Origin: Phyllosticta citribraziliensis
Lineage: Eukaryota
DNA: 64,000 nucleotides
NCBI RefSeq assembly: GCF_038025025.1
Contig: NW_027117339.1
Location: 1,240,001-1,304,000 of the forward strand
Reading direction: 5' to 3'
The number at the start of each line of letters is the position of its first letter. The first letter of the stretch is position 1. The notes beneath the pieces are model-generated. The model made no database searches and was not told where the DNA came from. It saw nothing but the letters and a program-made list of their open reading frames with translations. A program made the translations under genes and the position numbers. Of the stretch, positions 1-64,000 are shown piece by piece.

Positions 1-1368
1 TCAACAGTGCGCCTAGCCGAGCGCGCTGGCGATGTCTTCGTCTTCAACTGGCCCATCGATAGGCCTTTGGTACCAGGAAAGCCACTGTTGAAGGCTGACG
101 ACGAAGTCTGGCCATTCAAGCTGCACAATGACGCGCTGGAGCACGACGAAAAAGCGGGCATTGGCGGCCGCTGGGCCAACGTTCGCTCTGAAGTTGTCGC
201 GCGTTGGGTCCGCAGGGGCTACCAGGCCAGCAGAGAAGACGACATGGAACGGGAGGTCGCCGAGGACAGCGGCGTGATGATTGAAGAGCTGTTGGCTGGA
301 TATCGCGTTGCGGCTCTGGGTCACCGCGGAGGTGCTGCTCGTCATCCTCCGGTTCCAGAGTCGTCGAGCGATGAGAACATGGATGGTCACAGCAGCCCCG
401 TTGGAAGTGGACGTGATGTGCACATGGAGGTGGACAATGATGGTGTCGCCGCTGGCCTCCAGTTTCTTGGTGATGTCAACGGCGAGGATACATCCAATGG
501 CAATGGCATGGTCAGCGGCTATGGAGTCAACGGAATTGGGGTCAACGGCAACGGCATGACCAACGGCTATGGAGTCAACGGCAATGGCATGGTCAACGGA
601 AATGGCGTCGTCAACGGCAATGGTATCAACGGCAACGTCACATCCAACCACAACAGGGGCTTTACGGCCATCAATGCTAGAAGAGCCACTCCTACGCCAG
701 CCGAACCTTCTTCTGAAGCATCCTCTGGCGCTCGCTCGCCCCCATCGGAGGGCAGCTATTGGTCTACTGACGAAGGCGAACAGTTCGTTCGCGACGAAAG
801 CGACCTCGCATTCGCCAACGGTCGCTTGTGGGCCCACTTGCTTGCGGAGACTGAAAATCAAAAGCGAGGGGAAAAGTCCGAGTCCGAGTCTGAGCAAGAG
901 GAGGAGATACCGTCCGAGCCCGAGTTCGAGCAAGAGGACGATGAGGAATCCGGGTACGAGGGCGAGGAAGAGTCCGAGAAAGAGTCCGAGCAAGAGGCAA
1001 AGGACGAGCATGAACGGAACGAGCATCAGGATGGTCATCAGGACGGTGGGTCCAAAGGGGGCGAGAAGGAGGACGAGGAAGAAGTGAAGAATCGCTATCG
1101 ACGCGACGACGAGGGTGACAGCGATAGTGACGAAGACGAGGAGCAGCCGTTGCTGAAGCGCTCAGGCAAGGGAGAGGACGGTGAGGATGGAGACGAGGAA
1201 AATAAACAGGGTGATGGTGAGGAGGGCGAGCGTGGCGAGACGAACAGGACCCCTATTGGCGGTGTTGTCGTCCGCACACCTCCCCCTCCGCCTCAGCAGG
1301 TTTCGGAAGACTCCTCATCTGATGAGTTGGATCTGAGCAAGCTGACCATGTATGAGTTGGGTCATTGA
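1..1368 (+). CDS. Hypothetical protein, 5'-truncated by the window edge; N/G-rich repeats followed by a long acidic low-complexity tail
   Basis: Frame open from base 1 to TGA at 1366-1368 (>450 codons), coding-like codon usage, E/D-rich C-terminus; no recognisable domain. Confidence 0.7.
   Translation, partial: STVRLAERAGDVFVFNWPIDRPLVPGKPLLKADDEVWPFKLHNDALEHDEKAGIGGRWANVRSEVVARWVRRGYQASREDDMEREVAEDSGVMIEELLAGYRVAALGHRGGAARHPPVPESSSDENMDGHSSPVGSGRDVHMEVDNDGVAAGLQFLGDVNGEDTSNGNGMVSGYGVNGIGVNGNGMTNGYGVNGNGMVNGNGVVNGNGINGNVTSNHNRGFTAINARRATPTPAEPSSEASSGARSPPSEGSYWSTDEGEQFVRDESDLAFANGRLWAHLLAETENQKRGEKSESESEQEEEIPSEPEFEQEDDEESGYEGEEESEKESEQEAKDEHERNEHQDGHQDGGSKGGEKEDEEEVKNRYRRDDEGDSDSDEDEEQPLLKRSGKGEDGEDGDEENKQGDGEEGERGETNRTPIGGVVVRTPPPPPQQVSEDSSSDELDLSKLTMYELGH
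496..645 (+). repeat. Imperfect coding tandem repeat (GTCAACGGCAATGGC-like units) encoding VNGNG/NGYGV repeats
   Basis: Translation NGNGMVSGYGVNGIGVNGNGMTNGYGVNGNGMVNGNGVVNGNGINGN. Confidence 0.85.
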
Positions 1369-46183: not shown

Positions 46184-49100
46184 TCAGCGCAAGCCCCCTC
46201 GAATGACGGCCACCTGGCCGTTCTTCGGACAAAGTAGCGATCCATCTCGCATCAACGCGCAAAGCTCCAAGTTCTTACCACTGGTCCAGCCCCGGGGTAT
46301 GAAGAAGTACCGACGCTGGGGATCCAGGCCAATGTCAAAAGAGTCCGGTTTCAATCTGTATGTGCAAAGCCAAAGGTCCGAATCCAGATATGCCAGCCTC
46401 GAGCCCGATAGAAAACCCAAGGGGACATTGACTTTTTCTGCAATGTGTCGTGGGATTGGGAGCTCCGGAAGATTCGCCATCGAGTAGTCGCGACTGTCGG
46501 GACTCAAAGAAGAGCTGTTGAATACAAGAACGCAATTGGTGACTTTTCCTCGAAAAGGCCCTATGCTGATCTGTACAAGCAAATGCTGCCTATCAGGATC
46601 CACGATTACCCTCGTCACTTCCATGTGGTCTTTGACCTTGTCCAAATAATCTGGGGAAATTGACGTCAATGCAGTCGCCATTGAAGTCGCCATGGTCTCC
46701 TCCTCGCGAACACTTGTAAAGCTGTCAACGCGCGTAGAAGCTCTTCCCAGCTTCATGCGACGCTGTTCGCTGAAATCGGCCCAGTCGAAAATTCGCACAT
46801 CATGTGGGCCAACGCCGAGAAAAAGATTCTCGTGAGTTGGGTGGTTTAACCATTTTCTTTTTTTACTGCGCTCGAGGGATGCAGAGATGCATATTTTGCT
46901 GCAGTCGACTGATCGAATCTGGCATTTGTCTTGGAAGACAAGCAGGAGCAGCTTCGAGTCTCTGCTTAGAAGCATTTCATTCGGTCGGACGCGTTTCGAG
47001 TCGACTTCAACGAGCGTCTTGCTAACATGATCGAGGCTCAGGTTTTTGGAGCGGTCCACCCGTGTGAGAACGATGTGTCCATCCATCCACGCAATAAGCT
47101 GCTGCCCATCGTCACTCCACCTGAGGTTGCTGCGGCACATGGGTCCAAACCCCTTTGCTAATTGGAGCGAATCGCCCGTGTGAGCGTTGCGGAGTGTGGC
47201 CGGCCCATCAAATTCACCTGTGCAGTATAGTCTTCCAGTGGGGGCAACTGCCAGAGCATCGATATCTTCAAAATCCTCGTCGTCGCTTTGTGACGTGTGG
47301 GACAAACACGACGAAGTCGGATTTTCGCTCGCGTTGTCCAGAAACGTCTCTTCGGACGCACCGAAGAGAAGCAAATTGTCGGAGGTCCACGCATTCAGGG
47401 TGTTCCACCTAATGTCGTAGAAGCGGGTGCAGTCGGGACTGAAGGCCATGTCCGTGACCAAGTCGTCTGATGGGAGCTGGTACAATGGCACCAACGTGGC
47501 AAAGTTCCAAACTGTGACCGTTCCGTCGGGGCGACTGGACAGAAACAGTTTGCCGTTCGAGCTGGCAGCAACCTCATCCGCGACTGCTCGCACTTCCTCA
47601 TACTCGTCTGTCACCGGATGCCACTTGAAAATGCATGCTCCCTTGACAATGCCAATGATGTGGCCACTGACCGGATTCCAGGTGAAGCGCGGAACACGCA
47701 GCCAAGATGACGAGAGATAGGCCTTGACTCGGAATTCGCCCTTTCCAACGCATCTGCCGATACACTTGGCTCCATCGACTGTCCACACCGCCAATGGATA
47801 GCTTCTATACGACACCCCGATCTGTGTGGCATCTCCATTGAAGGCGACACAGACGGGGGTGTTGATAAATGCTCCCTCAATGTGTTGAGTCTCCCTTAGT
47901 AGCGCTGAATCAAGGATGCGCCAGCCTCTATCAAAGTCATCAATATGGAGCCACAACACAATTCTGTCATCCATGACTGCGTAGACCTTGCTGTCATCAG
48001 AAGCAAATGTGATCGCCTTTGCATCGTTATTTGCTGGGTTTTCGCAGGACGCTAGCACTTCTCCTGACGGTATTGACCAGAGTTTGGTAGTGCTCTGATA
48101 GCCAAAGCTGATCAGTCTGGTACCCGCTTTGTTGAAGCTGATCTTGGACACATGCTCTCCATGGGACAGGACAACAGTTTGTGAAAAATCCCCGGAGCTC
48201 CAGATGAAAATCGTTCCATCAAACCCCAGGACAGCAATGTGGTGCCCAGCGCATATTATCTGATCCGCGTTCACCTTGTCGGGTAGGTCGATCTTAGCCA
48301 GGTTATCGTCCCACTTCTTGTGTGACATGCCGGATACAAGCACTTGAGCCGAGTCTGGATTGTGGAATTGGCGGTGTATGAGCGAGTTTTCTGGACAAAA
48401 GGGGGGAATGAGTTTGTAGACGACGGCGGGATCTTCGATTAGGTGGAAACTGAATTTGCCTATCACTTTCACGAGGTCGACAGTCCACTGATCCAGAATT
48501 TCCAGGTCCGAAATCCGATGGAGCGGCTGGCTACTACCCGCCAGCAGTCTTTTGGCGACGCGGCTGTGGTTGCGCAATATGTTTGATGAGCTGATCATGA
48601 CCTCTAGTTGGCCGACGAGAGACAACGTATGGATCCATGACAGAACCGCCGGGCTTTGTAAGAACTGAACAAGGAGCTTCAGAGAAGCGTCTTTTCGACT
48701 GCTGTGGCGCAAATGATATGGCCAGGAAACTGCAGCGTAGCAGATGAACGGCTCTTCCAACTTGAAAGCCTCCGAATCTTTCAGCAGCTTGACGCGCAGT
48801 CTACTATCCATCAAGGTGGAGAGACACTTTGCAAACAGTTCGCCGTGGGCCTCCCCCAAATCAACTGCAAGCTCGGATCTTGTGATTTGAGTGAAGTATT
48901 CGCGAGCCGTCTGGTGAACCATTCCAACCTGTCCGGTGCCGTCCACATGAATGAACTGCCCGCAGATGTCCCGTATGGTACTCTTGAGATCCAAAAACTC
49001 GGGGAACGCTGGTCTCAGCGCCTCGGACAGTTCCTTCAGATGCAGAGAGCGTTGCGAGCAGAGAGTCCACTGAAGCAAAGCCTTGGAAAGGCGGCGATCG

Positions 49101-51133
49101 CTCCTCCGAAGGCTTTTGAGAATGCCAATTTCCATGTGCCGGTAGAAATGACTCATCTCATCCGGCACTTCGTCCAAGACCTCGTGTATGGCTTCTTCTA
49201 TGTGGCATTGCTGGATCTGCTCCAGTACCAGGCGTGCCCAAAGAAAGTTGCCATGGGCTCGACTCATTATCCTCTGCTTGACTTTTTCTCTGACCGCCGT
49301 GCTGCCACGCATGTAACTCAGTCCCTGTTCGACCAGCAGCTTGATGTCGTTCATGTTATGGCCGGTCCCATGCTTGTCGATCCTGCCTACGGAAATTATA
49401 CGAGAAAGACGGTCGAATTCAAAGCTGAAAGAATCCGTACTCCGACTGAATATGCAAATTCGAATTGCGGTCTGAGATGAGGAAATGCCTTTCAGAAGGT
49501 GAATGAACGCTCCCGGTGACTCAGACTCATCCAGAGCATCAACTACCCAATATAAAGGATACTCGAGCTTCATTCTGAACAGAATCTCCTCGTAAATCTT
49601 GCGCCAGATCATGGAGCAATCAGCCTTCCCAAGCCAAGAGCTTTCCGACGAAAGTTTCACCAAAGCGCGTCGGAATTCCGGTATGTCGCGAGCAATCTGG
49701 TACGCGAGAGACCTTAGAACGTAGCCCAATGACTGCTTCTGAAGATCGTTGGACCTGAAAAAAAAATATTGGCAATCGTATTTTGACCGTCGGAGCTGAT
49801 CGATCAAGTAGCTTGAAATTGTCGATTTGCCGCTAGCCGGAGGAGCGCTGTACCAAACGATTCTAGATCCTGGGGTCGGCTCCATCCACGAGAGAATTTC
49901 TGGCTCGTCGAACAGCCATTCGCATGTCCCGTTGATTCTCTGATGACGGAGCTCCACAAGGTCCTCTTCAGGGGTTTTCGATACTGCCAGTAGCCTTTGG
50001 ATGACTTGCTCCTCGTCGGCTGCTTGGTTGTGTAAAGCCCTGGAACTCGCATCTCTCAAACGACCCATGATGTCCTTGAGCGTATTCAAGACGGTTGTGT
50101 AATTCTTATCTCGAGGACTCGAAAATTTGCAGACGTCGTGGTGGTCGGCATCGAGAGGAATGGAGATTTCGCTTGGATAGCCCAGCACCGACGATTCCTT
50201 TTCCAGAATCTTGATCTTTGTAGGTCCAATAGCGGTTGCCAAAGTCTCGTAGAAGGAGTAGATCAACAGTTTTGGTGCAATGTGGCGGAATTGTTCGTTC
50301 ACGTCTTCAATCGTAGTAGATGTCTTGACCAAGTCTTGCACGAAGCCTTTTGGTGATCTGAGCGAAATCGATAGAATCCTATTGAGGATTTTCGCCAAGT
50401 CTGTACCGCGGTGCGGAGTGGAGAGGAACACAACCCCAGAAATTGATTTGACAATCTCCTTGTATTCCACGTCATTTTGGCCGAGGAGATAGGCTTTCTT
50501 CACAACCAGTCCGCCCATGGAGTGAACCACAAAGAGAATGGGAACTTTCCCGATTCCAAGAAGCTCACCTTTGCTACATCTTCCGCGACGCATTTCTGAC
50601 AGAAGCTCTTTCGCAAACGAGGTTATGTTCGAAATGCTTGCTGGGGTGCGGGAAGAGAAGTCGGCATTGTAACCAAACGTCAAGATGCGAGCTTGGCTTA
50701 TGTCTGAATCGAGAGGAAGCCAGTTCCCAGGCCAGAACCTTCTAAGGTCATGATTCTTGGACCACGTCTTTCGACTTCCACCTCCTAGACCATGCACAAA
50801 AATGATGTCAAGAGGAGCCTCATCCGATGGTTGGTGAACGACGTGAAGACCATAGTCATTCCCCTCGACAACGTCTGGAAGCGAATCATGTCGGTCTATG
50901 TCCACCGGAACCGAGGTGGGCAGGGTGCCGCCGGAGCCAGTCTTCGAACTGGAAAATTTCCGGATGCTTACATCAAATAGCGATGGCTTTAAGGTTGACG
51001 CGGCGCTTAGATTGCCTTCAGATTCTGAGGCATTGCGGTATTTGCTCTTGAGTGACTTGGTCGATCGAAACTTCTTCAGCTGTTTGTGTATTGTTAGTGT
51101 AAGATGCCGGCAAGGGTGAGCGAAAAATACCAT
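46184..51133 (-). CDS. Fungal NLR-like STAND protein: SesB-like alpha/beta hydrolase - NACHT - WD40 (ATG exon plus intron 51130-51080)
   Basis: DIIFVHGLGG, VVHSMGGLVVKKA, FLSTPHRG, DADHHDVCKF; GTCEWL, P-loop APPASGKST, Walker B YWVVDALDES, GNFLWARL, HQTAREYF; C-terminal WD-like repeats. Confidence 0.92.
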   Translation of the reverse strand: MVFFAHPCRHLTLTIHKQLKKFRSTKSLKSKYRNASESEGNLSAASTLKPSLFDVSIRKFSSSKTGSGGTLPTSVPVDIDRHDSLPDVVEGNDYGLHVVHQPSDEAPLDIIFVHGLGGGSRKTWSKNHDLRRFWPGNWLPLDSDISQARILTFGYNADFSSRTPASISNITSFAKELLSEMRRGRCSKGELLGIGKVPILFVVHSMGGLVVKKAYLLGQNDVEYKEIVKSISGVVFLSTPHRGTDLAKILNRILSISLRSPKGFVQDLVKTSTTIEDVNEQFRHIAPKLLIYSFYETLATAIGPTKIKILEKESSVLGYPSEISIPLDADHHDVCKFSSPRDKNYTTVLNTLKDIMGRLRDASSRALHNQAADEEQVIQRLLAVSKTPEEDLVELRHQRINGTCEWLFDEPEILSWMEPTPGSRIVWYSAPPASGKSTISSYLIDQLRRSKYDCQYFFFRSNDLQKQSLGYVLRSLAYQIARDIPEFRRALVKLSSESSWLGKADCSMIWRKIYEEILFRMKLEYPLYWVVDALDESESPGAFIHLLKGISSSQTAIRICIFSRSTDSFSFEFDRLSRIISVGRIDKHGTGHNMNDIKLLVEQGLSYMRGSTAVREKVKQRIMSRAHGNFLWARLVLEQIQQCHIEEAIHEVLDEVPDEMSHFYRHMEIGILKSLRRSDRRLSKALLQWTLCSQRSLHLKELSEALRPAFPEFLDLKSTIRDICGQFIHVDGTGQVGMVHQTAREYFTQITRSELAVDLGEAHGELFAKCLSTLMDSRLRVKLLKDSEAFKLEEPFICYAAVSWPYHLRHSSRKDASLKLLVQFLQSPAVLSWIHTLSLVGQLEVMISSSNILRNHSRVAKRLLAGSSQPLHRISDLEILDQWTVDLVKVIGKFSFHLIEDPAVVYKLIPPFCPENSLIHRQFHNPDSAQVLVSGMSHKKWDDNLAKIDLPDKVNADQIICAGHHIAVLGFDGTIFIWSSGDFSQTVVLSHGEHVSKISFNKAGTRLISFGYQSTTKLWSIPSGEVLASCENPANNDAKAITFASDDSKVYAVMDDRIVLWLHIDDFDRGWRILDSALLRETQHIEGAFINTPVCVAFNGDATQIGVSYRSYPLAVWTVDGAKCIGRCVGKGEFRVKAYLSSSWLRVPRFTWNPVSGHIIGIVKGACIFKWHPVTDEYEEVRAVADEVAASSNGKLFLSSRPDGTVTVWNFATLVPLYQLPSDDLVTDMAFSPDCTRFYDIRWNTLNAWTSDNLLLFGASEETFLDNASENPTSSCLSHTSQSDDEDFEDIDALAVAPTGRLYCTGEFDGPATLRNAHTGDSLQLAKGFGPMCRSNLRWSDDGQQLIAWMDGHIVLTRVDRSKNLSLDHVSKTLVEVDSKRVRPNEMLLSRDSKLLLLVFQDKCQIRSVDCSKICISASLERSKKRKWLNHPTHENLFLGVGPHDVRIFDWADFSEQRRMKLGRASTRVDSFTSVREEETMATSMATALTSISPDYLDKVKDHMEVTRVIVDPDRQHLLVQISIGPFRGKVTNCVLVFNSSSLSPDSRDYSMANLPELPIPRHIAEKVNVPLGFLSGSRLAYLDSDLWLCTYRLKPDSFDIGLDPQRRYFFIPRGWTSGKNLELCALMRDGSLLCPKNGQVAVIRGGLR

Positions 51134-51585
51134 CTTGTCGAGTTTCACGCAGCATTGATGCGCATTGGTCTCACCGTTGGAATATAATCACGGTTGCCGC
51201 GGTTCCTTTGGGAATGGAAAAATAGACCAGCAACCCTGTGACTCCCGAACAGATGCTCCGAATACTGTAGATGGAGAAGACAAGAGAGCGCCCGAGTCTG
51301 TGGTGTTATCGAAGGACAACTCATTCTTTCAGGATAATTCCCAGCGATTATGCGCGCGCGCCCCAGAGTCACTCGGCCAGGATTGGTGCATTCGGTGGGG
51401 ATGTGGTGGGTCGCTTCTCCGAAAGAGGCGAGTTTCCCCTCACTTGCGCCAACAATAGATCTCCCTAAGCGCTTCGCAACACACGACCTCATTAGCATAG
51501 CAGGATCTTTGCGACAGAGCTTGAGAAAGTTCCGACAATCTCGAACGAGTTTCCAGGTCACTTTTGCAACCTCTTTTTCTGAAAC

Positions 51586-53217: not shown

Positions 53218-54631
53218 AGGAACTGGCACTTCTTTTGATGTCTGCTGTGTCACTTTGTGAGAATTCATCTTGTCTAGCAGAGCTGCACTGCGGGATTCCT
53301 GGAAACCGGATGGCGCTGCGATTCTCTCTGACTTCGTCCAATTCATGTTCAAGACGCAATGACAAAACGCAGTGGCTTTAGAAAGAGAAGCGAGACCTAT
53401 GGCTTCGTGTCGTGCAAAATGCCGCCTTCCTCTTGCCCAGACGTCGCTTGCTCGGTTCAAATCTTGAGAAGTCCGAATGCAAGAGTGCTTATGCAATGCC
53501 GCCACACGAGGCGCTCAGTCGTGGCCATGCCATTAGCCGGTCAGAGCAACGGGCGTGCAAAGAAAAGAGGCACAACGGACCGTCGGCACGTCAAGCGGAT
53601 CAACCGGGCGGATCTGTAGAGTCCTTTTGCGGGAGATCGCTTAAGCAGAACATCCGGGATCCGGCTTCGTGTTTTTCAATTGGAGCAGTTTCAGGACAGT
53701 TGCCCAAATTTTAGATGAGGTCCTTCTCCAGTCGATGTTGGCGTTCCGCTGTCATTTGAGAGCGTGGCATGTTCGGCTGCGCTCCCGTGGACCCGGAGAG
53801 AGGCCGGAAATTCTTGTGGGTGGAAGCCAGGCAAGTCTTGGTGGCCTGCAACGCGTGGTCGGGCCGTGGCATCGACGCGTCTGTCTGCATGTGGCGGCGT
53901 CGGTACGACTCGAATTACCGTCTGATCGGTTCCTAGATCTGGACAGTGCCATGAGTCGAGCTGGCATCGGTTAGAGAGAGGGTGATTCGATGTCCCCCGA
54001 ATTACATGCACCGGCAACCGGGTTTCCTGTGATGTTTTCGAGTCGAGGAAAAGGCTTGAGTTGAGCTTGAACGGGTCCGCTGAAGCTTGGCCTTTGACCC
54101 CTTGGAGGCCGGGAGAGGCAAGCAGGAGGAGGAATAGTTCCAGAAGCAAACATGGCATGCGTAAAGGGGCGCATTGCTTGGCGTTTCAATTGGCGTAGCG
54201 AGCGGGACCGCCAAGCCTTCTCTTACTGCAAATCGACCTGGCCCGTGAGAGCAATGTCTTGGCGTGCCCCCGGTGTTGAGTCTGGATGGTGGAAACGGAT
54301 CAATCAACTTCACCGAATCGATCCACATTTTCCCGATGCGCTGTGTCTCCACCGTCCTGCTTCGTTCGGACGCCTGCTTCGGCCGCTGCCCGCAGCTGCG
54401 CTTTTGCCAGTCTGCGAAACGTCAGTCCTGTTTCATGGCTTTCTGCCCCCATGCTCCCTCAACTCCTGCAGCCCAGCTGCCAGATTCGCTTGGGTCACGC
54501 CGAGCGACTCAGTCGCTCCCGGAGATGACGGCCCAGAAACGGGTGTTGTTCTGGTGGAGAAATCGTCTCCGTTGTTGTCGAGTGTCGACATCGTGTGGTT
54601 CGTAGGCGAGTTCCTGGCTGTCGACCCTCCA

Positions 54632-54637
54632 TATAAA
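54632..54637 (+). promoter_or_regulatory. TATA box of the pectate lyase gene
   Basis: TATAAA about 110 bp upstream of ATG 54743, followed by a CT-rich leader. Confidence 0.6.
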
Positions 54638-54742
54638 TGTATACCTTTGTCTGCCTTGAAACTTCATTCACCATCCAGTCCTTCCTTCTTCCCTATTCCC
54701 TCTTTTCCAACAGTCGAGCCTGCTGTGCAGCCCACTATCACC

Positions 54743-55844
54743 ATGAAGACCGCAGCTCTTACAACCTTTGCCCTTTCCATGCTCAGCCAGCTGGCTCTGG
54801 CTGCCCCGACCAAGACCAACAACGAGAAGAGCAACGTCCTGGCCAAGCGTGCCGCCATTACTGATGGCCCCTCGGTTGGTTTCGCCACCCTGAACGGCGG
54901 CACCACTGGTGGCAAGGGCGGTACCACGACCACCGTCTCCGACCTGGCCAGCTTCACTGAGGCCGCCACCGCCGACGGCGCTCAGGTTATCGTTGTCAGC
55001 GGTACCATCGAGGGCGGTGCCAAGGTCAAGGTCACCTCGGACAAGACCATCGTCGGCCAGGACTCCAAGGCCATCCTCAGCAACATTGCCCTCTACGTCA
55101 AGGGCCAGAAGAACGTCATCATCCGCAACTTGACCATCAAGGAGGTTTTGGCCGAGTACGGTGATGCCATTGGTATCCAGGAGTCGACCAACGTCTGGGT
55201 AAGAATCCTCCTTGGTCCCGGACGCAACCCCTGAGCATGACTGACAGGCCTAGGTTGACCACTGCGACCTTTCTTCCAACCGTGACCACGACAAGGACTA
55301 CTACGACGGTCTGCTCGACGTCACCCACGCTTCCGACTACGTGACCATCTCCAACACCTACCTCCACGACCACTGGAAGGCCTCTCTTGTTGGTCACTCC
55401 GACTCCAACGGCGACGAGGACACCGGCCACTTGACCGTCACCTACGCCAACAACTACTGGAAGAACATCAACTCGCGTATGCCCTCGTACCGCTTCGGAA
55501 CTGGCCACATCATCAACAGCTACTTTGAGGACTGCAACGACGGAATCAACACTCGCCAGGGGTAAGTGGAAGCAGCTTTCCCAGAGAAGCTCACAGATTG
55601 CTAACACCATGACAGTGCCCAGCTCCTCATCGAGTCCAACGTCTTCTCCGGCCTGAAGAAGCCCATCTACTCCACCGACTCTGGCTACGCCACCGTCAAC
55701 GACAACGACTTTGGCTCCGGCGAGAACGCTGCTGAGGCGGGTAAGCTCTCCAAGTCTGACCTTGGCTACGAGTACACCCTCCTTGGCTCCGGTAAGGTCA
55801 AGTCCGCCGTTGTTGGTACCGCTGGTGCCACCCTCACCTTTTAA
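54743..55844 (+). CDS. Secreted pectate lyase, polysaccharide lyase family 1 (introns 55199-55253 and 55562-55616)
   Basis: Signal peptide, KR Kex2 site, GFATLNGGTTGGKGG, NVIIRNL, WVDH, YYDGLLD, KASLVGHSDSN, SRMPSYRFGTGH. Confidence 0.95.
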
Positions 55845-56555
55845 GCGACGGTCTTGGCTGATGGAGCATGACTGACGGTTGCAATTGATCGCGGTTTTCT
55901 TGAGAAATCTTGTAAATGATTATATCGAGCATAGCATGGCAATGAGCATCCGTTCTCTGGATTGAATTTTCGCGATTGACTGAGATGATTCCGTGTCCTG
56001 ACGTGTCTTGGGCCGCGTGTGACCAGGCTGCAGTGGTTCCCAACAGAATTACGCATGTGGTGAATTGGGGGCGGTGCGTGCCGCAATGCATGTTGGAAAC
56101 AGCCCCCTATGTGACTGGTAGAGGATGATAACTCCTCGGAAGCGACCATGGCAGTGGACGACAGCGTGGCGGATGAAAGCTCGGTGGCCGATGAAAGCTT
56201 GAGCGCGAACGAGCAGCCGACTTTTTGCTAGAAGAGTTGAGGGGTACATCCTTCTCTTCGCTGTCTGCGGGGCTACCTGAATGATCCGATTACGAGTCCT
56301 GGATGATCAGAAAAGAGTAAGACTTGTGATCTTGTGTCGGTGATGTTGGTCCGATGGTGAGCAGAGAGGGCGCGTGGTAAAAGGAAGTTTGGCGTTGAAA
56401 GAAGCTCGTTGGCCGGCCCAAGCTCCCACTCCCAGGCTCTGCGGTGCCGGTGCGGGTATCGATAGCGCATCTCCGGCACCTTCAATCCGGATCGGCAAGA
56501 AGCGGCATACAACAGTCATACTTTCTTTCGCCCCATCGCCTCGCATTGTTTGCTG

Positions 56556-57839
56556 ATGAAACCTCCTCGTTCCTTCCGTTTTGTTCGCAAATCCTGTCTT
56601 TTCTCCTCTCCTTCATCCCAATTCTTCTCCGGTTCCATCAGCGCACCCATTCGTCTCCAGAACCAAGCACGAACAATGACGGGCAACACCCCTCTTCACA
56701 ACTTCTACCCGGGACCCTCTGCGAAAAAGCTCGAGGCCACGGCATCGCACCTTACCAATGGCCACGCAAACGGCTCTGTCGACCACTGGGCAACGCCTGG
56801 CCCAGCGGCCTTTGATTTCCGCTCCGACACAATCACGACCCCCACTGCTTCCATGCTCACAGCCATCTCTGCAACTACGCTTCGCGACGACGTCTACCAA
56901 GAGGACCCAACCACCAATTCTCTACAAGAATGGATTGCCGACATGACTGGCAAGGAAGAAGGTCTTCTCGTAATGAGTGGCACCATGGGCAACCAAGTTG
57001 CGATCCGCGCGCATCTGGCCGGACCACCTCACGCGGTTCTATGTGACCACCGCGGACACATTCTGACTGCCGAAGCCGGAGGAGTTGCCAGTCTGTGTGG
57101 TGCCATGGTCCAAGGTGTGGTGCCTTCCAACGGACACCACTTGACACTGGAGGACGTCAAGGCGCATGCGTGCCTGAGCGACGACATCCACGGCTGCCCA
57201 ACCAAGCTGATAAGCCTCGAGAATACCCTCGGCGGAACAATCATGCCGCTGGAGGAGGCCAGGAGAATCAGCAATTGGGCGCGCGAGCACGGCATCATCA
57301 TGCACTTGGATGGAGCCCGACTGTGGGAAGCGGTCGCCGCCGGTGCCGGATCCATGAAGGACTACTGCGACTGCTTCGACACCGTGCAACTGTGCTTCAG
57401 CAAGGGATTGGGAGCCCCCATGGGAAGCATCATTGTTGGTCCCAAGGCCTTCGTCCAGCGCTCGAGATGGATCCGCAAAGCGATAGGCGGTGGTATTCGC
57501 ATGGCTGGTATCCTATCAGCTGCAGCAAGGACGGCCGTCGAAGAGACCTTTCTGGGAGGCAAACTCCAAGAGACGCATCAAAAGGCAAAGCGGGTTGCTG
57601 CAACTTGGGAAAAGCTTGGCGGCAAATTGGCCATGCCTACAGAGACCAACATGGTCTGGTTGGATCTTAAGGCGGCCGGCGTCGACCAAGCAGATTTTGT
57701 GAATCTGGCCCACCAAAAGGGCATCGATACTTGGGGTCCAAGGAACATCATCCATTACCAGGTCTGCGAAGAAGCCTTACAAAGGCTTGAGCAGACCATG
57801 GAAGAGGTCCTAGCCAAGGCCAAGAACGGCACAAAGTAA
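56556..57839 (+). CDS. GLY1: Low-specificity L-threonine aldolase; alternative start at 56676
   Basis: AFDFRSDTITTP, SGTMGNQ, ISLENTLGG, HLDGARLWEA, PLP-lysine CFSKGLGAPMGS; intronless. Confidence 0.94.
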   Translation: MKPPRSFRFVRKSCLFSSPSSQFFSGSISAPIRLQNQARTMTGNTPLHNFYPGPSAKKLEATASHLTNGHANGSVDHWATPGPAAFDFRSDTITTPTASMLTAISATTLRDDVYQEDPTTNSLQEWIADMTGKEEGLLVMSGTMGNQVAIRAHLAGPPHAVLCDHRGHILTAEAGGVASLCGAMVQGVVPSNGHHLTLEDVKAHACLSDDIHGCPTKLISLENTLGGTIMPLEEARRISNWAREHGIIMHLDGARLWEAVAAGAGSMKDYCDCFDTVQLCFSKGLGAPMGSIIVGPKAFVQRSRWIRKAIGGGIRMAGILSAAARTAVEETFLGGKLQETHQKAKRVAATWEKLGGKLAMPTETNMVWLDLKAAGVDQADFVNLAHQKGIDTWGPRNIIHYQVCEEALQRLEQTMEEVLAKAKNGTK

Positions 57840-59078
57840 AAACGGGACGAGCGATTTCTTCATTCTTGTACAGTTCTCATTTTCTTATTCTTCTCTTTGT
57901 TCATTGAAGTCCTCATGAGCGTTCACTTAAGAGTCAGCTGGGCGGAAAATGGCAAGATTGGTTGATCTGGGTGCACAATAGACGCTGGAAACAAAGTTCC
58001 TCCACTACCACGTCACTGAATATGTTTTTCTTACACCTCTGTCTTGTTGATATCTTGTTCTCGCCACTGGCTGGGAAACGGTGCGTTCGGCCCCTGACGC
58101 CCGGCACAATCTACTGGTGTCCCGCCCGTCAATGCGGATCTCGCTACCCGGATAGTGTGCGTCTGGCTTGCCCCGATGCACCCGTAGGTATTTTTCAACT
58201 TTCATCCTTTCGACATGAGCATCTCAGCCCTGCATCAAGGCGCACTTCGGCTGTGATTGGTCGCAGACCCGATACCCAAAAGAGGCAAGTGGATCCACAA
58301 ATCAGACGTTAAGGATCCCGACGGGTAGGGCGCCGACTACCGAGAATCGATCCCGCAGGTACGTACTCAACACACTCGCCATCTACTGACGCATCATCAG
58401 CTGAGATGCCCCAGGCGTCCACCATCTCAAAGAGCCGCCGGTGTGTAGCAGCACGCAACTTGCACCGCCTGACGGATTACGTGACGGACGCGGCCGTGCG
58501 TCCATTCGTGGCAGGAGTGAGGCAGTGCTTACCACCTCTCTACGGCTCGCGCGAAGATCAAGTTCCCACAACGAGTTCGCAAGCAATCCAGAGCCGGTGT
58601 GGCAGAGCGGTGGCTAGTTGACCCGCCAGCAGAGCCGTCCGTTACGCGTCACAGGGGCATTCTCCAATCATTGCGTTGCTCGGTCAGATGGGAAGAGCCG
58701 AGCAGCCTCGCTCATGCGTCATTGAGCCTCTTCTTGAACCGACAACGCGTACACCGCGTGGGAACGTTGGATGGCCGCAGTCACTGATCAGCCTAGCTGT
58801 TGCGTAGGCGCTTCATTTCCTTTGTATGCGCAGCCTTCCTTGTGAGCAGCAGGTTTGGAGTGAGATGGGTGTTGAAAAAGGCCACAGCCGTGCCGTTTGC
58901 GGCGAAACCATCACCGTCTTTATCTGCCATCATTCATTGACAGAACCCTCCCCTCTACGACTATTTTACATTCCTGCTCCCTCCCTTGCATTGCTGCAAA
59001 CCACCAATTACCGTCCCCAGCTAGTTACCCGGTCACCACGCGAGAGCTTTTCCAATCCAATTCCACCCCACGGCAACC

Positions 59079-59399
59079 ATGACTGCATTCCTCGCCTCCC
59101 AATTCGTCGGCCTGCCTGTTTTCATCAACGACTTTTCCGTCTTCGAGTCGCGCAAACACGATGGCGGGCCGTCAGAAATCAAAAAGCCGGCCTCGACATC
59201 CGCTCGGTCGACGCCTTCCGTCGAGCAGAATACCAAACAAGACCCCGAATGGCGCGGTCTGCTTAGCCTACCCACGCCCGAGAGAAAGCCAATCGAGCCC
59301 TGGTCCATCTACTTTCGCTTCCCGATCGTCCTCGAGCGCAAGGAGGTCGACGAGTCTCGCAACTACCGATCGCATGGCAACTTGGAAGAGCAGGATTGA
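59079..59399 (+). CDS. Orphan hypothetical protein (106 aa)
   Basis: CAACCATGA start context after a CT-rich leader; C-ending codon bias; no recognisable domain. Confidence 0.4.
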   Translation: MTAFLASQFVGLPVFINDFSVFESRKHDGGPSEIKKPASTSARSTPSVEQNTKQDPEWRGLLSLPTPERKPIEPWSIYFRFPIVLERKEVDESRNYRSHGNLEEQD

Positions 59400-60796
59400 G
59401 TGAAGAGAGAAACCAGGAGAGCTAAGCAGACGACGTTCGGCGCTCTGCTGAGGCCTTGCCTCGTTGTACCGACGCCTCCGCATCACATCGCCGACCACCA
59501 GGCCATTCATTACAGCTCTGCGTTGGAGCAAAGCCGACCCGACGCAGAAACCATCTTTCCTGACACCGTCGACTGCTTCATTCATCACGGCCGCGTCGTG
59601 TCGCGACACCACACCGACTACCTACCAGTTGAAGCCGCATTCCACCGCGCTTCCCCAACTCGCCACGCAAATGGCGCACTCGAACAGATCTCGACGACGA
59701 CCTCAATCACGATACCCACGCGCCCACGACTCTTTTACTTCTTCGCTTTCTCCTCCTCCTCATCGTGCCCCCTCCCTCCTTCCGGCGGCCGCTGCCTTGT
59801 TGACTCTTAGTCCGGCGCTGCGTTTCGAGCTGCTTTGGCACGGCGTACGCGCAGTTTGGGCGCGGGTCGCGGCTGTCGCCACTGTCTCGTCGAGCCCGAG
59901 GCCGGGTCGTGCTGGCAAGCGCGTGCAGGCTGCAGCTTCGTAAGGTTGTGCTTGCGGGAGAATCGAGCCATGGGCGAACAGGACTCTGCCTTGTGTCTTA
60001 ATGTGCTGAGGCGTTTTTGAGGGGAGTGTATTTTATGTATCTGCTCAAGATCGAGAGAACGAAGGAGAGGATCGACGTCTCGTCTAAACGATGCCACGTC
60101 CATTGTGACGAGATCCATGTACGGTAGACGAAATCAAACTGCCTCGAGCAACTCGAACGAAACATGTACCCAAAGTCTGTCTTCCAGGTTGCTTCTCTTG
60201 ATATCCTTTGTTGTTAGTTCACTCTTCTGTCACGACGTAAGTCTTGCAGATTTTTTGAACTTCCAAAGGTGCATTGGCTTTTCTATCTAGAGATTTTCCG
60301 CACCGCGAGCGTACTTCTCGTTGAATAATTCCTCGCACTGGATTGAGCACATGTCCTGTCGAAGACCACCTTGGTGAAGCACAGCCGCACGACCAAAGGA
60401 AACCCTCTTGATGTAGCCATGCAATTGATACTTATGCGTCATGAAGACGTGAGTACGACCGTGAGGATACTCGAGGATGCGGTCGCGTTCTGAGTTGAGC
60501 GACCTCTCTTGTTTCCTGCCTCAATGTTAGCTTACGTATCTTTTCAACCATCGCGCGGTGACTTACCCAAGCTCTCAAGCTGTACTCTCCCTCACAAGGG
60601 ACCCGACGAGCATGGTTCGGGATTGGGAGCACCCTGCACCTGCGACGACGATGCTGTTCAGAACTGTCGCGGCCATCGTGTGCGCGATCAATTCTGACTG
60701 CGTGACCGGCTGTGGGTTGGATCGCAGGCCAGGGCCACGGCCAGTAGTCGCGCGCGTAGGACCAGGACTAGCAGGAGGAGCAGAAGATTGACCATA

Positions 60797-62301
60797 TCAT
60801 TCTGCACCGTGACGCTCTGCTGCCTCCCTTGCTGCCACCCTCTCTGCCGCAGCAAGTGCCTCCTCCTCCGTAACGACGTGAGGCTCGCCAGTCAGCACTT
60901 CGGGCTGCGGGATTTCCCCAGACGCCTTTGCCTCGTCGACTCCGGAAGCTCGTGACTTGCAGTTGCTGGTTTCGCTTGCAGTGTCGTCATCCGGCGTTGC
61001 AGACTGTGCAGGCAGAAGCGGACCGTACTTCATTGACAATAGAGTCATGATGAAGAACCAAGTCTGCATGTCGATGTCCTCGGTGTTCAGGCCTTGAGCC
61101 ATCCGGTCGAGCGTCGTATGCACGACGAGGTTCTGAGCTTCCCCCCCCAAGCGCGACAGGACGTAGTCGTACTTTGCCTCGTCGTCCTCGAACTTATCGC
61201 CGTCCATCGCCATCTTCAGCAGCATCTGTGCGTCGAAGGCGGGGAACGCACCTGGGTCGCCGGAGAAGACGTCAGGGTCTGGGAAAACGGAGGGATACGA
61301 GGCCGGGGCACCTGATTGATGCGCTTCGTCTTGGGCGCTCCTATCCTGGTCGTCGGCATCCTCAGCCTGCTGCGGAGAGTCGCATCGAGCAAGCTGGTCA
61401 ACCTCTTCTTCTGCCGGGGTAACAGCGGCTGGTGGTACAGGGCGGAAGGGAACCGAGAACGAAAAGTCGCAAGTTGGGAGACCCTCTGAACGGTTCTCGG
61501 AGCGACTTGGCGTTTGAGGCTGACCTGCAGGCTTGACGATGGTATAAGGAGTTGTGTTGAGGTGCTCCGATTCGGGAATCTTGAAGCGAAAGGGCTCCTC
61601 GGGTTTCGTCTCCAAAGCGCGTTCAAGCGAAGGTGGGGTAGCAGATTCCTCGATCTCAAGAGTTGTATTGGTCGCTGGGCCTGACGACGAGTCGAGCTGG
61701 TCGGAGAGCCGCGGAGTCTGAGGTATATACTGAGGCTCGTGAGCCGGTCGAGACGGTGAAGTCTTTTGGAAGCATTCAGACTCCGCTGGAGATGCTGACT
61801 CCTCCAGCTGGTTGACATCTTGAAGGTCGATGTAAGCCTGCAGCAACTTTCGCTTCATGCCTTGTGAAGTTGTTGTGGTGTTGCGCAGGGAAAACTCCTG
61901 GTTGGCATGAGAACCTACTTCGTGTTAGTCGGCAAGTTTCGAAAGACTGTCGTTGGTTCGTTTTCCGAGTGCTTTCACTTACTTCTCATCTCTTCCAACT
62001 CTCTATCCTTCATCCTCAGCTTGGCCTCCAGCAGCTCGATGCTGGTGGTTTGCGTGACGATGCCGTTGAAGAGGAGGCCGTCGGCGTCTGCATGCTGGAC
62101 GTGGTGCTTGAGGTCGTCTGCGCTGCCGATGCGCACGTCACCAACCCAGAACCCCAGCCGAGAACGAACGCCAGGCTCGCGAGCGAGAGGCCTGATATAC
62201 TGGTGGTGGTTTTGTCGCTGGGACATGCTGGTAGAGGTTTCTGGCGTGCTGGATGCCGACTGCACACTTCCAGACTTCGTGATCTGGTCCATGGAGCTCA
62301 T
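60797..62301 (-). CDS. Two-exon protein (~478 aa; intron 61982-61915) with a Ty3/gypsy Gag capsid-like domain
   Basis: AAACAATGA start; GTAAGT..ACTAAC..TAG intron joins ORF 62301-61983 in frame to ORF 61914-60797; FPDPDVFSGDPGAFPAFDAQM...DEAKYDYVLSRLGGEAQ...KYG resembles retrotransposon Gag. Confidence 0.75.
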
Positions 62302-62772
62302 TGTTTATACGTAGCTGGTTGGAAAGAAATTGAACGGGAGAAGGGAGAGAATGACAGAACTTTTGCCGGGTGTAAGGGTCAAAGGTTGCGGTTGAGACTT
62401 GATCGAGTCGACTCGGTTGCGGTGCTTGGTTGCGACGGCGGTGGTGGTGGAAAGCTGTGACAGGGTCGACGGACTTCGAAAATCAATACCACTGTGCGCG
62501 TCGAGATTTTCCAGCCTAGCAGCCAGAAGGAAGGCGCAACCACTAAGCAGAGAAAATTTCAAGCCTTTGACAAAAACATGACAGCTCCGACTTTGAAATG
62601 TTAATTTCGCAATGTATACACCTGATAGGGGACTCGTGATGACTATCCACTGCTCCTAATCATGATTCGCCACGAGGAAACAGCTGGGAATTTTCTCGCA
62701 GGCAAGCTTCAGCGCATCGCTCTATAAGCGAGAGAATGAGTTCAACGCGAGAGCCTTGCTGTTATTCTAGCT

Positions 62773-63509
62773 ATGGTGACCATCTTTTACAGGAGAGTCA
62801 GCGGGAGTGTTCATCCTCAGCAGGAGGTTCAAACTTACAATCCCAATTCTTTCCTTGGCCACAGAGGTAGAAACCTCCTGGCCTCCCGGTCCCGCTTCTA
62901 CTTTGAAACTTGATATCGATGTCCGACCCTCAACGCCTTCCAGCTTGCAGCTTTGGGTTCTTGATCGGCAACCTCAGGTGTGGTACATCGCGTCTCCAAT
63001 AACACTCGGGGCTGGTGACACAGCCATCATTGTCAAGGGCCATCTCTCCGACAAGATAAAAGGTATGAATGGCGCAAGGCTCTGCGCGGGAAAACACTTC
63101 TCTGCCCAAGAACATGATAAACGAACTGCTTCCCATTTTCAGATTAAATGATGGCGGAAAAAAGGGCTTCCCATGGAAGGCTTCCTCGTTTCCAGACTGC
63201 TTTTTCCAAGACTCAAGCGAGAAAGATGACGATTCATCATTTGCCAAATCTACAGTGCCTCGCTGTAAAGATTTGGCCTCAGCAGCGGATGGCACCTGGT
63301 ATTATACCTACCTTTCCTACAGGTTGCCGCAAGCAATTGCCTTTGCGACCAGCTTGCCACGAGAGCAATCTGGATCCAAGCCGACAATCGGCGTATGGCA
63401 ACGCGAACTGTTTCCAGCCGCCACACGAGACGAGATTGCTACGAAAGAAAGAACGAACCAGCCAGCTCGCATGGCAACGAGACAATGGCATGTGCGACGG
63501 AATCGGTAA
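62773..63509 (+). CDS. Possible multi-exon orphan gene (structure unresolved)
   Basis: Candidate introns ~62978-63023 and ~63063-63142 (GTATGA..TTTCAG) lead into a 120-codon open frame ending at 63509; no homology recognised. Confidence 0.25.
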
Positions 63510-64000
63510 AGACAGGCTCGACGAAAAAAGTCTTGAGATGCGAGTTGACCAAGCAAAAGAGCAGCAAGGCGCTGGCAAAGAGGCATGCTTGCGTTCATGA
63601 CTGGCTGGTCAGTTGAGGGAGGTACAGTGGAAACTAGACTTGGGCTTCGAGCGATAAGGCCGCATGCGAAGAGAAAGCGACGACAGCGAGGGAGAGGAAA
63701 GACGTTACGAAAAAGAAACCTCGCATCCTACTAGAGACAGCAGCAGAGCCACCACCATCGATGCAGCCGCCTGTCTCAGATGGCGAAGAAATTCAGCCAC
63801 CGCAAGCGCGTGGGAGATCGGCTGGCTGGATTACCGCACTGGCTGCCGGGAAAAGCCATTCTCACAGGGCTAGTCAAGCCAGCAAAACAAACAAGAACGA
63901 CAGCCAGCCACCGTGTCTCGCTTCGGCAAGGGCAGACAAGACAGTGTCTAGGCAATGCTACCACTTTTTCAGCGCATTTTCTGATGCCAATACAGCAAGT

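Follow-up and report, generated by a model that had tools for sequence, protein, structure and literature searches.

Much is known about co-opted gag genes of animals, such as Arc, PEG10, RTL, PNMA and SCAN. Mammalian RTL8 forms no particles alone (PMC11684626); it binds the N-lobe of PEG10 and lowers the yield of virus-like particles (VLPs). VLP assembly is likewise poisoned by Ty1 p22 and by the endogenised gag fragment Drt2 (PMC13709905). For fungi, the accessible text of Wang & Han (2021, PMC8321522) describes three co-opted gag genes, Crtg12-14, two of the Ty1/copia type and one of the Bel-Pao type: they are single-copy and expressed, two are found in orders of the Dothideomycetes, and they predate the divergence of families. 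That systematic screen was confined to above the family level, its authors state that younger events would be missed, and the same accessible text reports no fungal Ty3/gypsy case (PMC8321522). Here we describe a candidate of this last kind, a two-exon gene on the minus strand at 60797-62301 of a 64,000-nucleotide stretch of the fungus Phyllosticta citribraziliensis (contig NW_027117339.1, positions 1,240,001 to 1,304,000). This whole stretch is called the window below, and all positions are counted from its first letter.

An earlier note on the window, made from its letters alone, had proposed at this place a candidate domesticated retrotransposon Gag gene that is spliced, devoid of pol and reduced to the capsid N-lobe. 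Our analysis supports the proposal, through the match of the lobe, the missing element parts, the splicing and the presence of relatives in six species. In all likelihood, the locus is a genus-restricted, co-opted gag N-lobe gene.

The Gag-like domain at residues 311-405

The product of the gene has 478 amino acids and is letter for letter identical to P0003, a P. citribraziliensis protein of the same length that NCBI names uncharacterised. Residues 311-405 (61019..61303, minus strand) form a domain composed of a strand motif, PDPxxFSGD, and four helices. We are confident that it is a Gag capsid N-lobe of the Ty3/gypsy type. The pattern had been located before at about 61286-61022; the segment FPDPDVFSGD...KYG is in fact encoded at 61285-61022, one base off.

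The domain matches the Pfam family DUF4939 (PF16297), which belongs to one clan with Retrotrans_gag and Ty3_capsid, with E values of 5.9e-6 and 8.8e-6. The orthologues P0004 (E 1.2e-5) and P0005 (E 2.6e-4) match it at the same place, so that all three close orthologues, P0003 included, carry it; a precomputed table of the protein collection also lists PF16297 for P0003 and P0004. No other Pfam family is found in the protein at E <= 10, be it Retrotrans_gag, Ty3_capsid, zf-CCHC or any pol family.

The three close orthologues were then combined into a profile (A1), and an exhaustive comparison with 1.84 billion representative proteins gave 33 that match at E <= 1e-3. They include four Phyllosticta proteins, related over their full length. 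The remaining 29, with E values from 2e-6 to 1e-3, align to the domain only, at profile positions ~270-405. DUF4939, Retrotrans_gag or Ty3_capsid is present at E <= 0.01 in 28 of these 29 proteins, the curated cut-off is reached by 20 and zf-CCHC occurs in 11; P0035 is the sole match outside Phyllosticta with no Gag family. In the alignment of 36 domain sequences, 29 Gag proteins among them, G325 and L362 are invariant, and conservation is 90% or higher at P320, F323, K340, Y357, G364 and A366. The columns common to all aligned sequences are the classic Gag ones (motif PDPxxFSGD ... K ... Y..SRL.G.A). A word-indexed protein search with the domain alone returned P0003 and P0004 only.

The family profile that includes the Gag matches (A3) retrieves Ty3 Gag (E 5e-8) and the PEG10 capsid (E 3e-13) from the PDB. 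Among longer proteins it finds three full Ty3/gypsy gag-pol polyproteins, plant or algal, which tell what family the profile represents and not what the closest relative of the Phyllosticta lobe is. Because these three kinds of sequence are retrieved together, we assign the superfamily as Ty3/gypsy-type. Within the window, Gag and gag-pol proteins match at 61058-61441 only. The lobe is identified as the N-terminal one since the match falls on the N-terminal part of Gag profiles and the best fits to dARC1, PNMA2, copia and Ty3 are all N-terminal lobes.

The predicted fold leads to the same superfamily. The model of residues 300-420, with a mean predicted local distance difference test (pLDDT) of 86, shows a short strand and four helices at model positions 28-48, 52-61, 65-80 and 92-104. 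In a VIA-align comparison with 48,161 representative chains, the top 14 rows are all retroelement capsid lobes, at Z 7.8-5.2. They are headed by dARC1 (Z 7.8, root-mean-square deviation 3.1, 75 residues aligned), followed by PNMA2 (Z 7.6 and 7.2), copia (Z 7.1), Drt2 (9rxy, Z 6.8) and the N-terminal domain of Ty3 (6r22, Z 6.2, deviation 3.1, 73/74 residues); PEG10, Arc and Rous sarcoma virus capsids are also among the top rows. Gag capsid structures account for 32 of the best 50 rows, and the peptide-bound N-lobe of Arc (4x3h) is among the fold matches at Z 5.0. The neighbours of the domain in the ESM Atlas are Gag, RTL6 and PEG10 clusters (feature score 0.92; TM 0.58-0.65 over residues 300-415).

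Several results pull the other way and would suit a resemblance by chance or convergence, in which a generic four-helix bundle happens to carry a proline/aromatic N-terminal motif. The DUF4939 score of 26.0-26.6 bits is under the curated cut-off of 29 bits, and the match covers only profile positions 25-79 of 112. The three-orthologue profile finds no Gag among solved structures, its best match being 4hlb at a non-significant E of 0.71. Foldseek places nothing from the PDB at E <= 1e-3 next to the domain model (dARC1 comes best, at E 0.39, with the Ty1 capsid as another weak top row) and nothing from BFVD either, where the weak top rows are caulimovirid coat proteins or polyproteins and ORF1 of a Penicillium metavirus. 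The top Z of 7.8 is within the range often reached by models that have no clear relative, and helical bundles can exceed it. Because the Z values are middling, the fold argument rests on the families that fill the VIA-align list, and not on Z itself.

A generic bundle nonetheless fits poorly with a DUF4939 match of E 6e-6 that recurs in the orthologues, with Gag families in all but one of the matches outside Phyllosticta, and with the fact that the residues held in common with them are the invariant Gag columns. Nor would it be expected to draw retroelement capsids into every one of the first 14 places, or Gag clusters as its language-model and structure neighbours. We consider a chance resemblance highly improbable. 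As to the N-lobe proposed in the earlier note, comparison by fold and profile bears it out: VIA-align, DUF4939 and the Atlas point to Gag capsids. Foldseek yields nothing significant, and DUF4939 stays under its cut-off.

Nothing else of a retroelement accompanies the lobe. In the full-length model, there is no C-lobe: past the helix at residues 391-403, only disorder and one helix (456-477) follow. The sequence contains no CX2CX4HX4C motif, and Pfam detects no protease, reverse transcriptase/RNase H, integrase or CCHC nucleocapsid in the protein or in 22 flanking open reading frames (ORFs). No LTR-like repeats (LTR, long terminal repeat) are seen: direct repeats of more than 47 nt are absent from the window, and of more than 25 nt from positions 54000-64000, the upstream flank in view being 1.7 kb. 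The earlier reading of the sequence had listed the same gaps. Its lack of a C-lobe signature, CCHC knuckle, protease, reverse transcriptase and integrase agrees with the Pfam scans, the model and the positions of the Gag-protein matches; its lack of a flanking LTR pair agrees with the repeat search, with 1.7 kb visible upstream. As LTRs, pol and nucleocapsid are all missing from the window, the locus is not an LTR element. As modelled, the protein is not a capsid-forming Gag of the Arc, PEG10 or PNMA2 type either, because it has no second lobe.

Transcript, distribution and conservation of the gene

The gene runs on the minus strand from the ATG at 62301 to the end of the stop codon at 60797. 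Coding exon 1 (61983..62301) specifies residues 1-106 and the first base of codon 107, and matches the N-terminus of P0003; coding exon 2 (60797..61914) provides the rest of codon 107, residues 108-478 and the TGA at 60799-60797. Between them lies a phase 1 spliceosomal intron of 68 nt (61915..61982, minus strand), with GTAAGT, a CTAAC branch site and a terminal TAG, placed within the coiled-coil helix. The spliced coding sequence has 1437 nt, equal to 478 codons and the stop. The start codon has an A at -3 and is preceded, at a distance of two codons, by an in-frame TAA. The good start context, canonical intron and uninterrupted frame noticed before are thus all present, and the 478-codon sequence equals P0003.

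The window was compared with the contigs of two public sequencing runs, X1 and X2, neither of which is recorded as RNA; contig data of this kind are silent on how strongly a transcript is expressed and where it ends. The X1 contigs agree with the window at 99-100% identity and extend over 60299-62431, except for gaps at 61541-61552 and 62072-62254. One of them skips the 68-nt intron exactly (61912 to 61981, cut +2), with 91 + 360 nt of flanking sequence at 100% identity, and so bridges the junction 61983/61914 predicted from the sequence; it is cDNA-like, from a run not recorded as RNA. Another skips a 51-nt GT-AG intron in the 3' untranslated region (UTR), at 60516..60566 (minus strand). A third GT-AG skip, of 55 nt (62784-62838), lies in a transcribed unit upstream and is seen in contigs of both X1 and X2, the latter from a separate study. 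Because these are three canonical GT-AG skips, all in minus-strand sense, we read run X1 as RNA-derived, that is, as complementary DNA (cDNA). The gene is expressed as a processed mRNA, as seen in the contigs of this one run.

From the same run, the 5' UTR extends over at least 62302..62431 (minus strand; contig record 4, spanning 62255-62431) and the 3' UTR over at least 60299..60796 (minus strand; contig record 2, spanning 60299-61540 minus the UTR intron). The upstream exon junction of the 3'-UTR intron is 230 nt 3' of the stop codon. In many eukaryotes, an exon junction so far past the stop tags the mRNA for nonsense-mediated decay.

The transcribed unit directly upstream occupies 62565-64000 on the minus strand and contains the 55-nt intron found in both runs. 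Its ORFs reach up to 150 aa with no Pfam match, and no more than 134 nt separate its end from position 62431, the 5' end known for our gene. It may represent a non-coding RNA, a separate gene that continues beyond the window or an extended 5' leader belonging to the transcript of our gene.

Full-length relatives are found in six named species: P. citribraziliensis, P. citrichinensis, P. paracitricarpa, P. citricarpa, P. citriasiana and P. capitalensis. There is one protein per assembly, mostly on contigs of megabase scale (0.28-4.2 Mb). In P. citribraziliensis, the identical protein occurs on two contigs, which we read as two assemblies. Two strains of P. citrichinensis have 74-79% identity; P. 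paracitricarpa, P. citricarpa and P. citriasiana fall in one 90% cluster at 47-52% identity; five strains of P. capitalensis stand at 29-30%. As for orthologues, which the earlier note had named as a check, the presence of intact ones is borne out by these full-length proteins, one per assembly.

Among the 1.84 billion representatives, no full-length relative occurs outside Phyllosticta. Four proteins of this library reach E <= 1e-10, all from Phyllosticta and none from P. citribraziliensis. Judged by these searches, the gene is restricted to the genus. Two of its forms, P0006 and P0007, are both labelled P. capitalensis and yet have only 43% identity, one being confined to one strain, the other shared by four. 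Such a gap suggests that the gene evolves very fast, that the label hides cryptic species or that the two are paralogues.

Conservation is distributed in blocks. Compared with P. capitalensis, the C-terminal segment stands at 53% identity, ahead of the N-lobe (37%) and the N-terminal module (32-39%). The variable linker falls to 9-15% and the long, intrinsically disordered one to 24-25%; tail, linker and disordered region span 9-25%. When the coding sequence was subjected to simulated neutral substitution, the frame stayed free of stops in 1 of 300 runs at 79% amino-acid identity, and in none of 300 at either 52% or 30%, the simulation being a crude one with substitutions only and no indels. 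We take the block-wise conservation and the survival of the frame as sequence-level proxies for purifying selection.

A decaying retrotransposon fragment, or a non-autonomous gag-only element transcribed by chance and without host function, is one alternative. The Gag similarity is indeed genuine, the protein is largely disordered and fast-diverging, and the upstream flank in view is short. A fragment of this kind sits badly, however, with a window that holds no LTRs, pol or further gag pieces, with a canonical intron removed in contigs and with the occurrence, in each assembly of six species, of a single intact full-length protein. No further paralogue appears at E < 1e-10 among the representatives, the conservation is uneven and block-wise, and 1 in 900 simulated frames remained open after neutral drift to the observed identities. 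Base composition also speaks against decay: the GC content at third codon positions is 0.649, within the 0.54-0.71 of the neighbouring genes, and no signature of repeat-induced point mutation (RIP) is present (TpA/ApT 0.52). We therefore regard an element in decay as very unlikely. On the same TpA/ApT ratio, a RIP-mutated relic was rejected. A secreted effector was also rejected, as no obvious hydrophobic N-terminal signal peptide is visible by eye.

The surroundings are an ordinary gene-dense region. The neighbouring genes encode a glycogen debranching enzyme, a MutS homologue, PEX1, Pam17, an LSM protein, a beta-eliminating lyase (56556-57839), a fructosamine kinase and a NACHT-WD40 protein that resembles NOD-like receptors (NLRs). 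The last is an uninterrupted frame of 1667 aa at 46187-51187 (minus strand), in which an NPHP3_N/NACHT-type NTPase, a winged helix and WD40 repeats make up a fungal NLR-like protein of the STAND (signal transduction ATPases with numerous domains) type. Between the lyase and our gene, a contig at 58000-60026, read as RNA, has a word depth of 1462, compared with 13-72 over the gag-like gene. It has no intron in this stretch, no ORF longer than 163 aa and no Pfam match among the ORFs tried, and may be an abundant short-ORF or non-coding transcript. At the other end of the window, an imperfect periodic repeat of 15-18 nt (CAACGGCAATGG...) at 495-638 (plus strand) lies inside a long open frame at 1-1365 and would encode an Asn/Gly-rich low-complexity run.

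Other modules and possible roles of the protein

A Ser/Thr-rich tail (residues 1-33) opens the protein. It is followed by a conserved N-terminal module, residues 34-74 (62080..62202, minus strand; QYIRPL...GFWVGD...), predicted to fold as a beta-hairpin and a short helix. No Pfam family covers this module, and the best feature scores of an Atlas search with residues 30-140 are 0.85, within the range of chance.

Residues 75-135 (61829..62079, minus strand, split by the intron in the DNA) are assigned to a long helix with a predicted parallel coiled-coil core at about 81-109. In the full-length model the helix spans residues 75-123, with block-mean pLDDT values of 76-96 over residues 81-120. An acidic, Pro/Ser/Thr-rich disordered linker of ~175 aa comes next (residues 136-310; 61304..61828, minus strand), with 33 Asp and Glu against 13 Lys and Arg, pLDDT mostly <50 and two conserved short motifs, EPFRF.IP and LPTCDFSF.P.RP. 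Both the short coiled coil and the acidic disordered linker had been recognised earlier in the sequence, and the predicted helix and dimer, the charge count and the low pLDDT of the linker are in accord with them.

Beyond the N-lobe, a variable linker leads to a conserved C-terminal segment, residues 441-478 (60800..60913, minus strand; P.PEV.T..P....E.EA.AAAE.MA), in which a helix is predicted at 456-477. No other part of the protein is as well conserved, and the block-mean pLDDT values here are 76-93.

Two copies of residues 34-140 were predicted as a homodimer with an ipSAE of 0.55, versus 0.06 for the best of three controls. The mark used for this score is reached by 21 of 30 proteins solved as same-chain pairs and by none of 23 solved as single chains (17 of 29 and 0 of 30, respectively, for eukaryotes). 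At least 88% of the contacts are shared between the runs, and the partners reach a pLDDT of at least 77. Packing is closest at symmetric contacts, which involve residues 81, 84, 88, 91, 95, 98, 102 and 105; because they recur at a spacing of 3-4, the coiled coil is read as parallel and in register. The prediction supports a putative dimerisation of the protein via this parallel coiled coil. Several of the Gag matches carry coiled-coil-like segments N-terminal to the lobe, and the zipper may have been inherited from the element.

Altogether, our best explanation, held with moderate confidence, is a chromosomal host gene built on one retrotransposon capsid lobe, for which we tentatively prefer a decoy role. 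A further set of observations weighs against it. The expression evidence comes from contigs of one run that is not recorded as RNA. The argument from frame survival leans on gene models of other groups and on a simple simulation that leaves out indels. The proteins of a single genus lie far apart (identities of 52% and 29-30%, and of 43% within the P. capitalensis label), which could reflect an arms race or weak constraint. The coiled-coil score may reflect likeness to solved coiled coils, and the annotated P. citrichinensis protein P0004 is without the coiled-coil segment (A1 columns 97-120, straddling the intron). This last gap is probably a different intron call in the gene model, and not a true deletion.

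The course of events was probably as follows. An ancestor of the sampled Phyllosticta species would have retained the N-terminal capsid lobe of a Ty3/gypsy-type gag, while the C-lobe, the nucleocapsid knuckle, pol and the LTRs were lost. The lobe would now be one part of a spliced gene that also encodes a dimerising coiled coil, an acidic disordered linker and a conserved C-terminal helix, and a parallel dimer would display two N-lobes, each on a long, flexible acidic arm. Lacking both C-lobe and nucleocapsid, such a protein should be incapable of closing a capsid or packaging RNA. As shell building and Gag-like RNA binding would be beyond it, the lobe most plausibly serves to bind a partner, which would be another Gag N-lobe or a short peptide, as with isolated N-lobes. 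In our view, the protein is most likely a dimeric N-lobe decoy or adaptor, similar to RTL8 or LDOC1.

As a decoy, it would act on resident Ty3/gypsy elements as RTL8 acts on PEG10, by capping or poisoning their Gag lattices during assembly. The precedents of RTL8 and of Ty1 p22/Drt2 make this role attractive, and divergence within the genus would fit an arms race. Conserved modules that do not come from Gag fit a host adaptor just as well, and a decoy directed at Ty3/gypsy Gag is only a tentative proposal. Equally tentative is the complete scenario of a fast-evolving, genus-specific restriction factor of filamentous fungi, a dimer whose two N-lobes would insert into Gag lattices and cap them and which would be the first of Ty3/gypsy origin in fungi.

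With the same origin from a Gag N-lobe, the protein could instead serve a function unrelated to retroelements. It would then be a dimeric cellular adaptor or scaffold, whose groove binds host peptides in the manner of Arc and whose linker motifs and C-terminal helix recruit other factors. The parts foreign to Gag are among the best conserved (53% in the C-terminal helix, 32-39% in the N-terminal module, and the linker motifs), which suggests host-specific interactions. The combination of coiled coil and N-lobe resembles host proteins of the LDOC1/RTL8 type, the N-lobe of Arc with its bound peptide is among the fold matches, and the locus is set in an ordinary gene-dense region. However, Pfam and the Atlas reveal no partner, localisation signal or known family for the non-Gag parts, and the full-length model docks no internal motif on the lobe with confidence, the linker having a pLDDT <50. 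Strong divergence inside one genus would also be unusual for a housekeeping scaffold. An adaptor or scaffold is possible in our estimation, but not probable. The decoy remains the specific role that we prefer, if only tentatively.

Comparison with known co-opted gag genes

The mammalian genes RTL8, LDOC1 and RTL6 (Mart/SIRH family, of the sushi-ichi type) are among the closest in design. They are likewise host genes that keep only the N-terminal part of the Gag capsid, and DUF4939 is common to both groups. They also have no pol and no LTRs and carry a helical zipper N-terminal to the lobe, and the RTL6 cluster is among the structural neighbours in the Atlas. The Phyllosticta protein differs in being ~3-4 times longer, with an acidic linker of ~175 aa between zipper and lobe, an extra N-terminal module and a C-terminal helix. 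Its gene has introns, and represents an independent event in a fungus. In the A1 search of 1.84 billion representatives, no animal protein shows full-length similarity and only the lobe aligns outside Phyllosticta; on this comparison of sequences, the gene is not an orthologue of the Mart/RTL family. The earlier note had drawn a parallel to LDOC1, RTL8 and PEG10. It holds for LDOC1 and RTL8, with their zipper, N-lobe and DUF4939; PEG10 has both lobes.

Arc, dArc1, PNMA2, PEG10 and Ty3 Gag include the best fold matches of the N-lobe, dARC1 at Z 7.8, PNMA2 at 7.6 and the Ty3 N-terminal domain at 6.2. These proteins possess both capsid lobes, often a nucleocapsid, and form closed shells, while the model of the Phyllosticta protein is without a C-lobe.

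In Saccharomyces, Ty1 p22/p18 and Drt2 are similar in that they are fungal and consist of a truncated single capsid lobe; Drt2 is also the fold match 9rxy, at Z 6.8. They derive from Ty1/copia, keep the C-terminal lobe and have demonstrated restriction activity, whereas the Phyllosticta protein, known from its sequence, has an N-lobe of the Ty3/gypsy type in a multi-module build. If it is a restriction factor, it would have arrived convergently at the solution of RTL8-PEG10 in mammals and of Ty1 p22/Drt2 in yeast, with the capsid lobe opposite to that of yeast. Retroelement restriction of this kind would mean that lattice poisoning has evolved as a defence time and again, starting from the one capsid lobe or the other.

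Crtg12-14 are single-copy, expressed, gag-derived fungal genes, and ours would be a gene of this kind; the Phyllosticta gene is distinguished from them by its Ty3/gypsy type and its occurrence, so far, within one genus. Among the features by which Wang & Han recognise co-option (orthologues, synteny, selection and expression), it has orthologues in several species and expression as a processed mRNA, from the contigs of run X1. In the texts accessible to our literature searches, we found no later fungal co-option of a Ty3/gypsy-derived gag, and nothing on such a gene in those on Phyllosticta transposable elements.

As a genus-specific and expressed gene, it is a potential taxonomic marker for a genus that includes citrus-associated species, and it would be a tractable fungal system for the early domestication of gag. 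Set beside the known cases, it would add a young, lineage-restricted fungal co-option that keeps the N-lobe only and has a modular build of its own.

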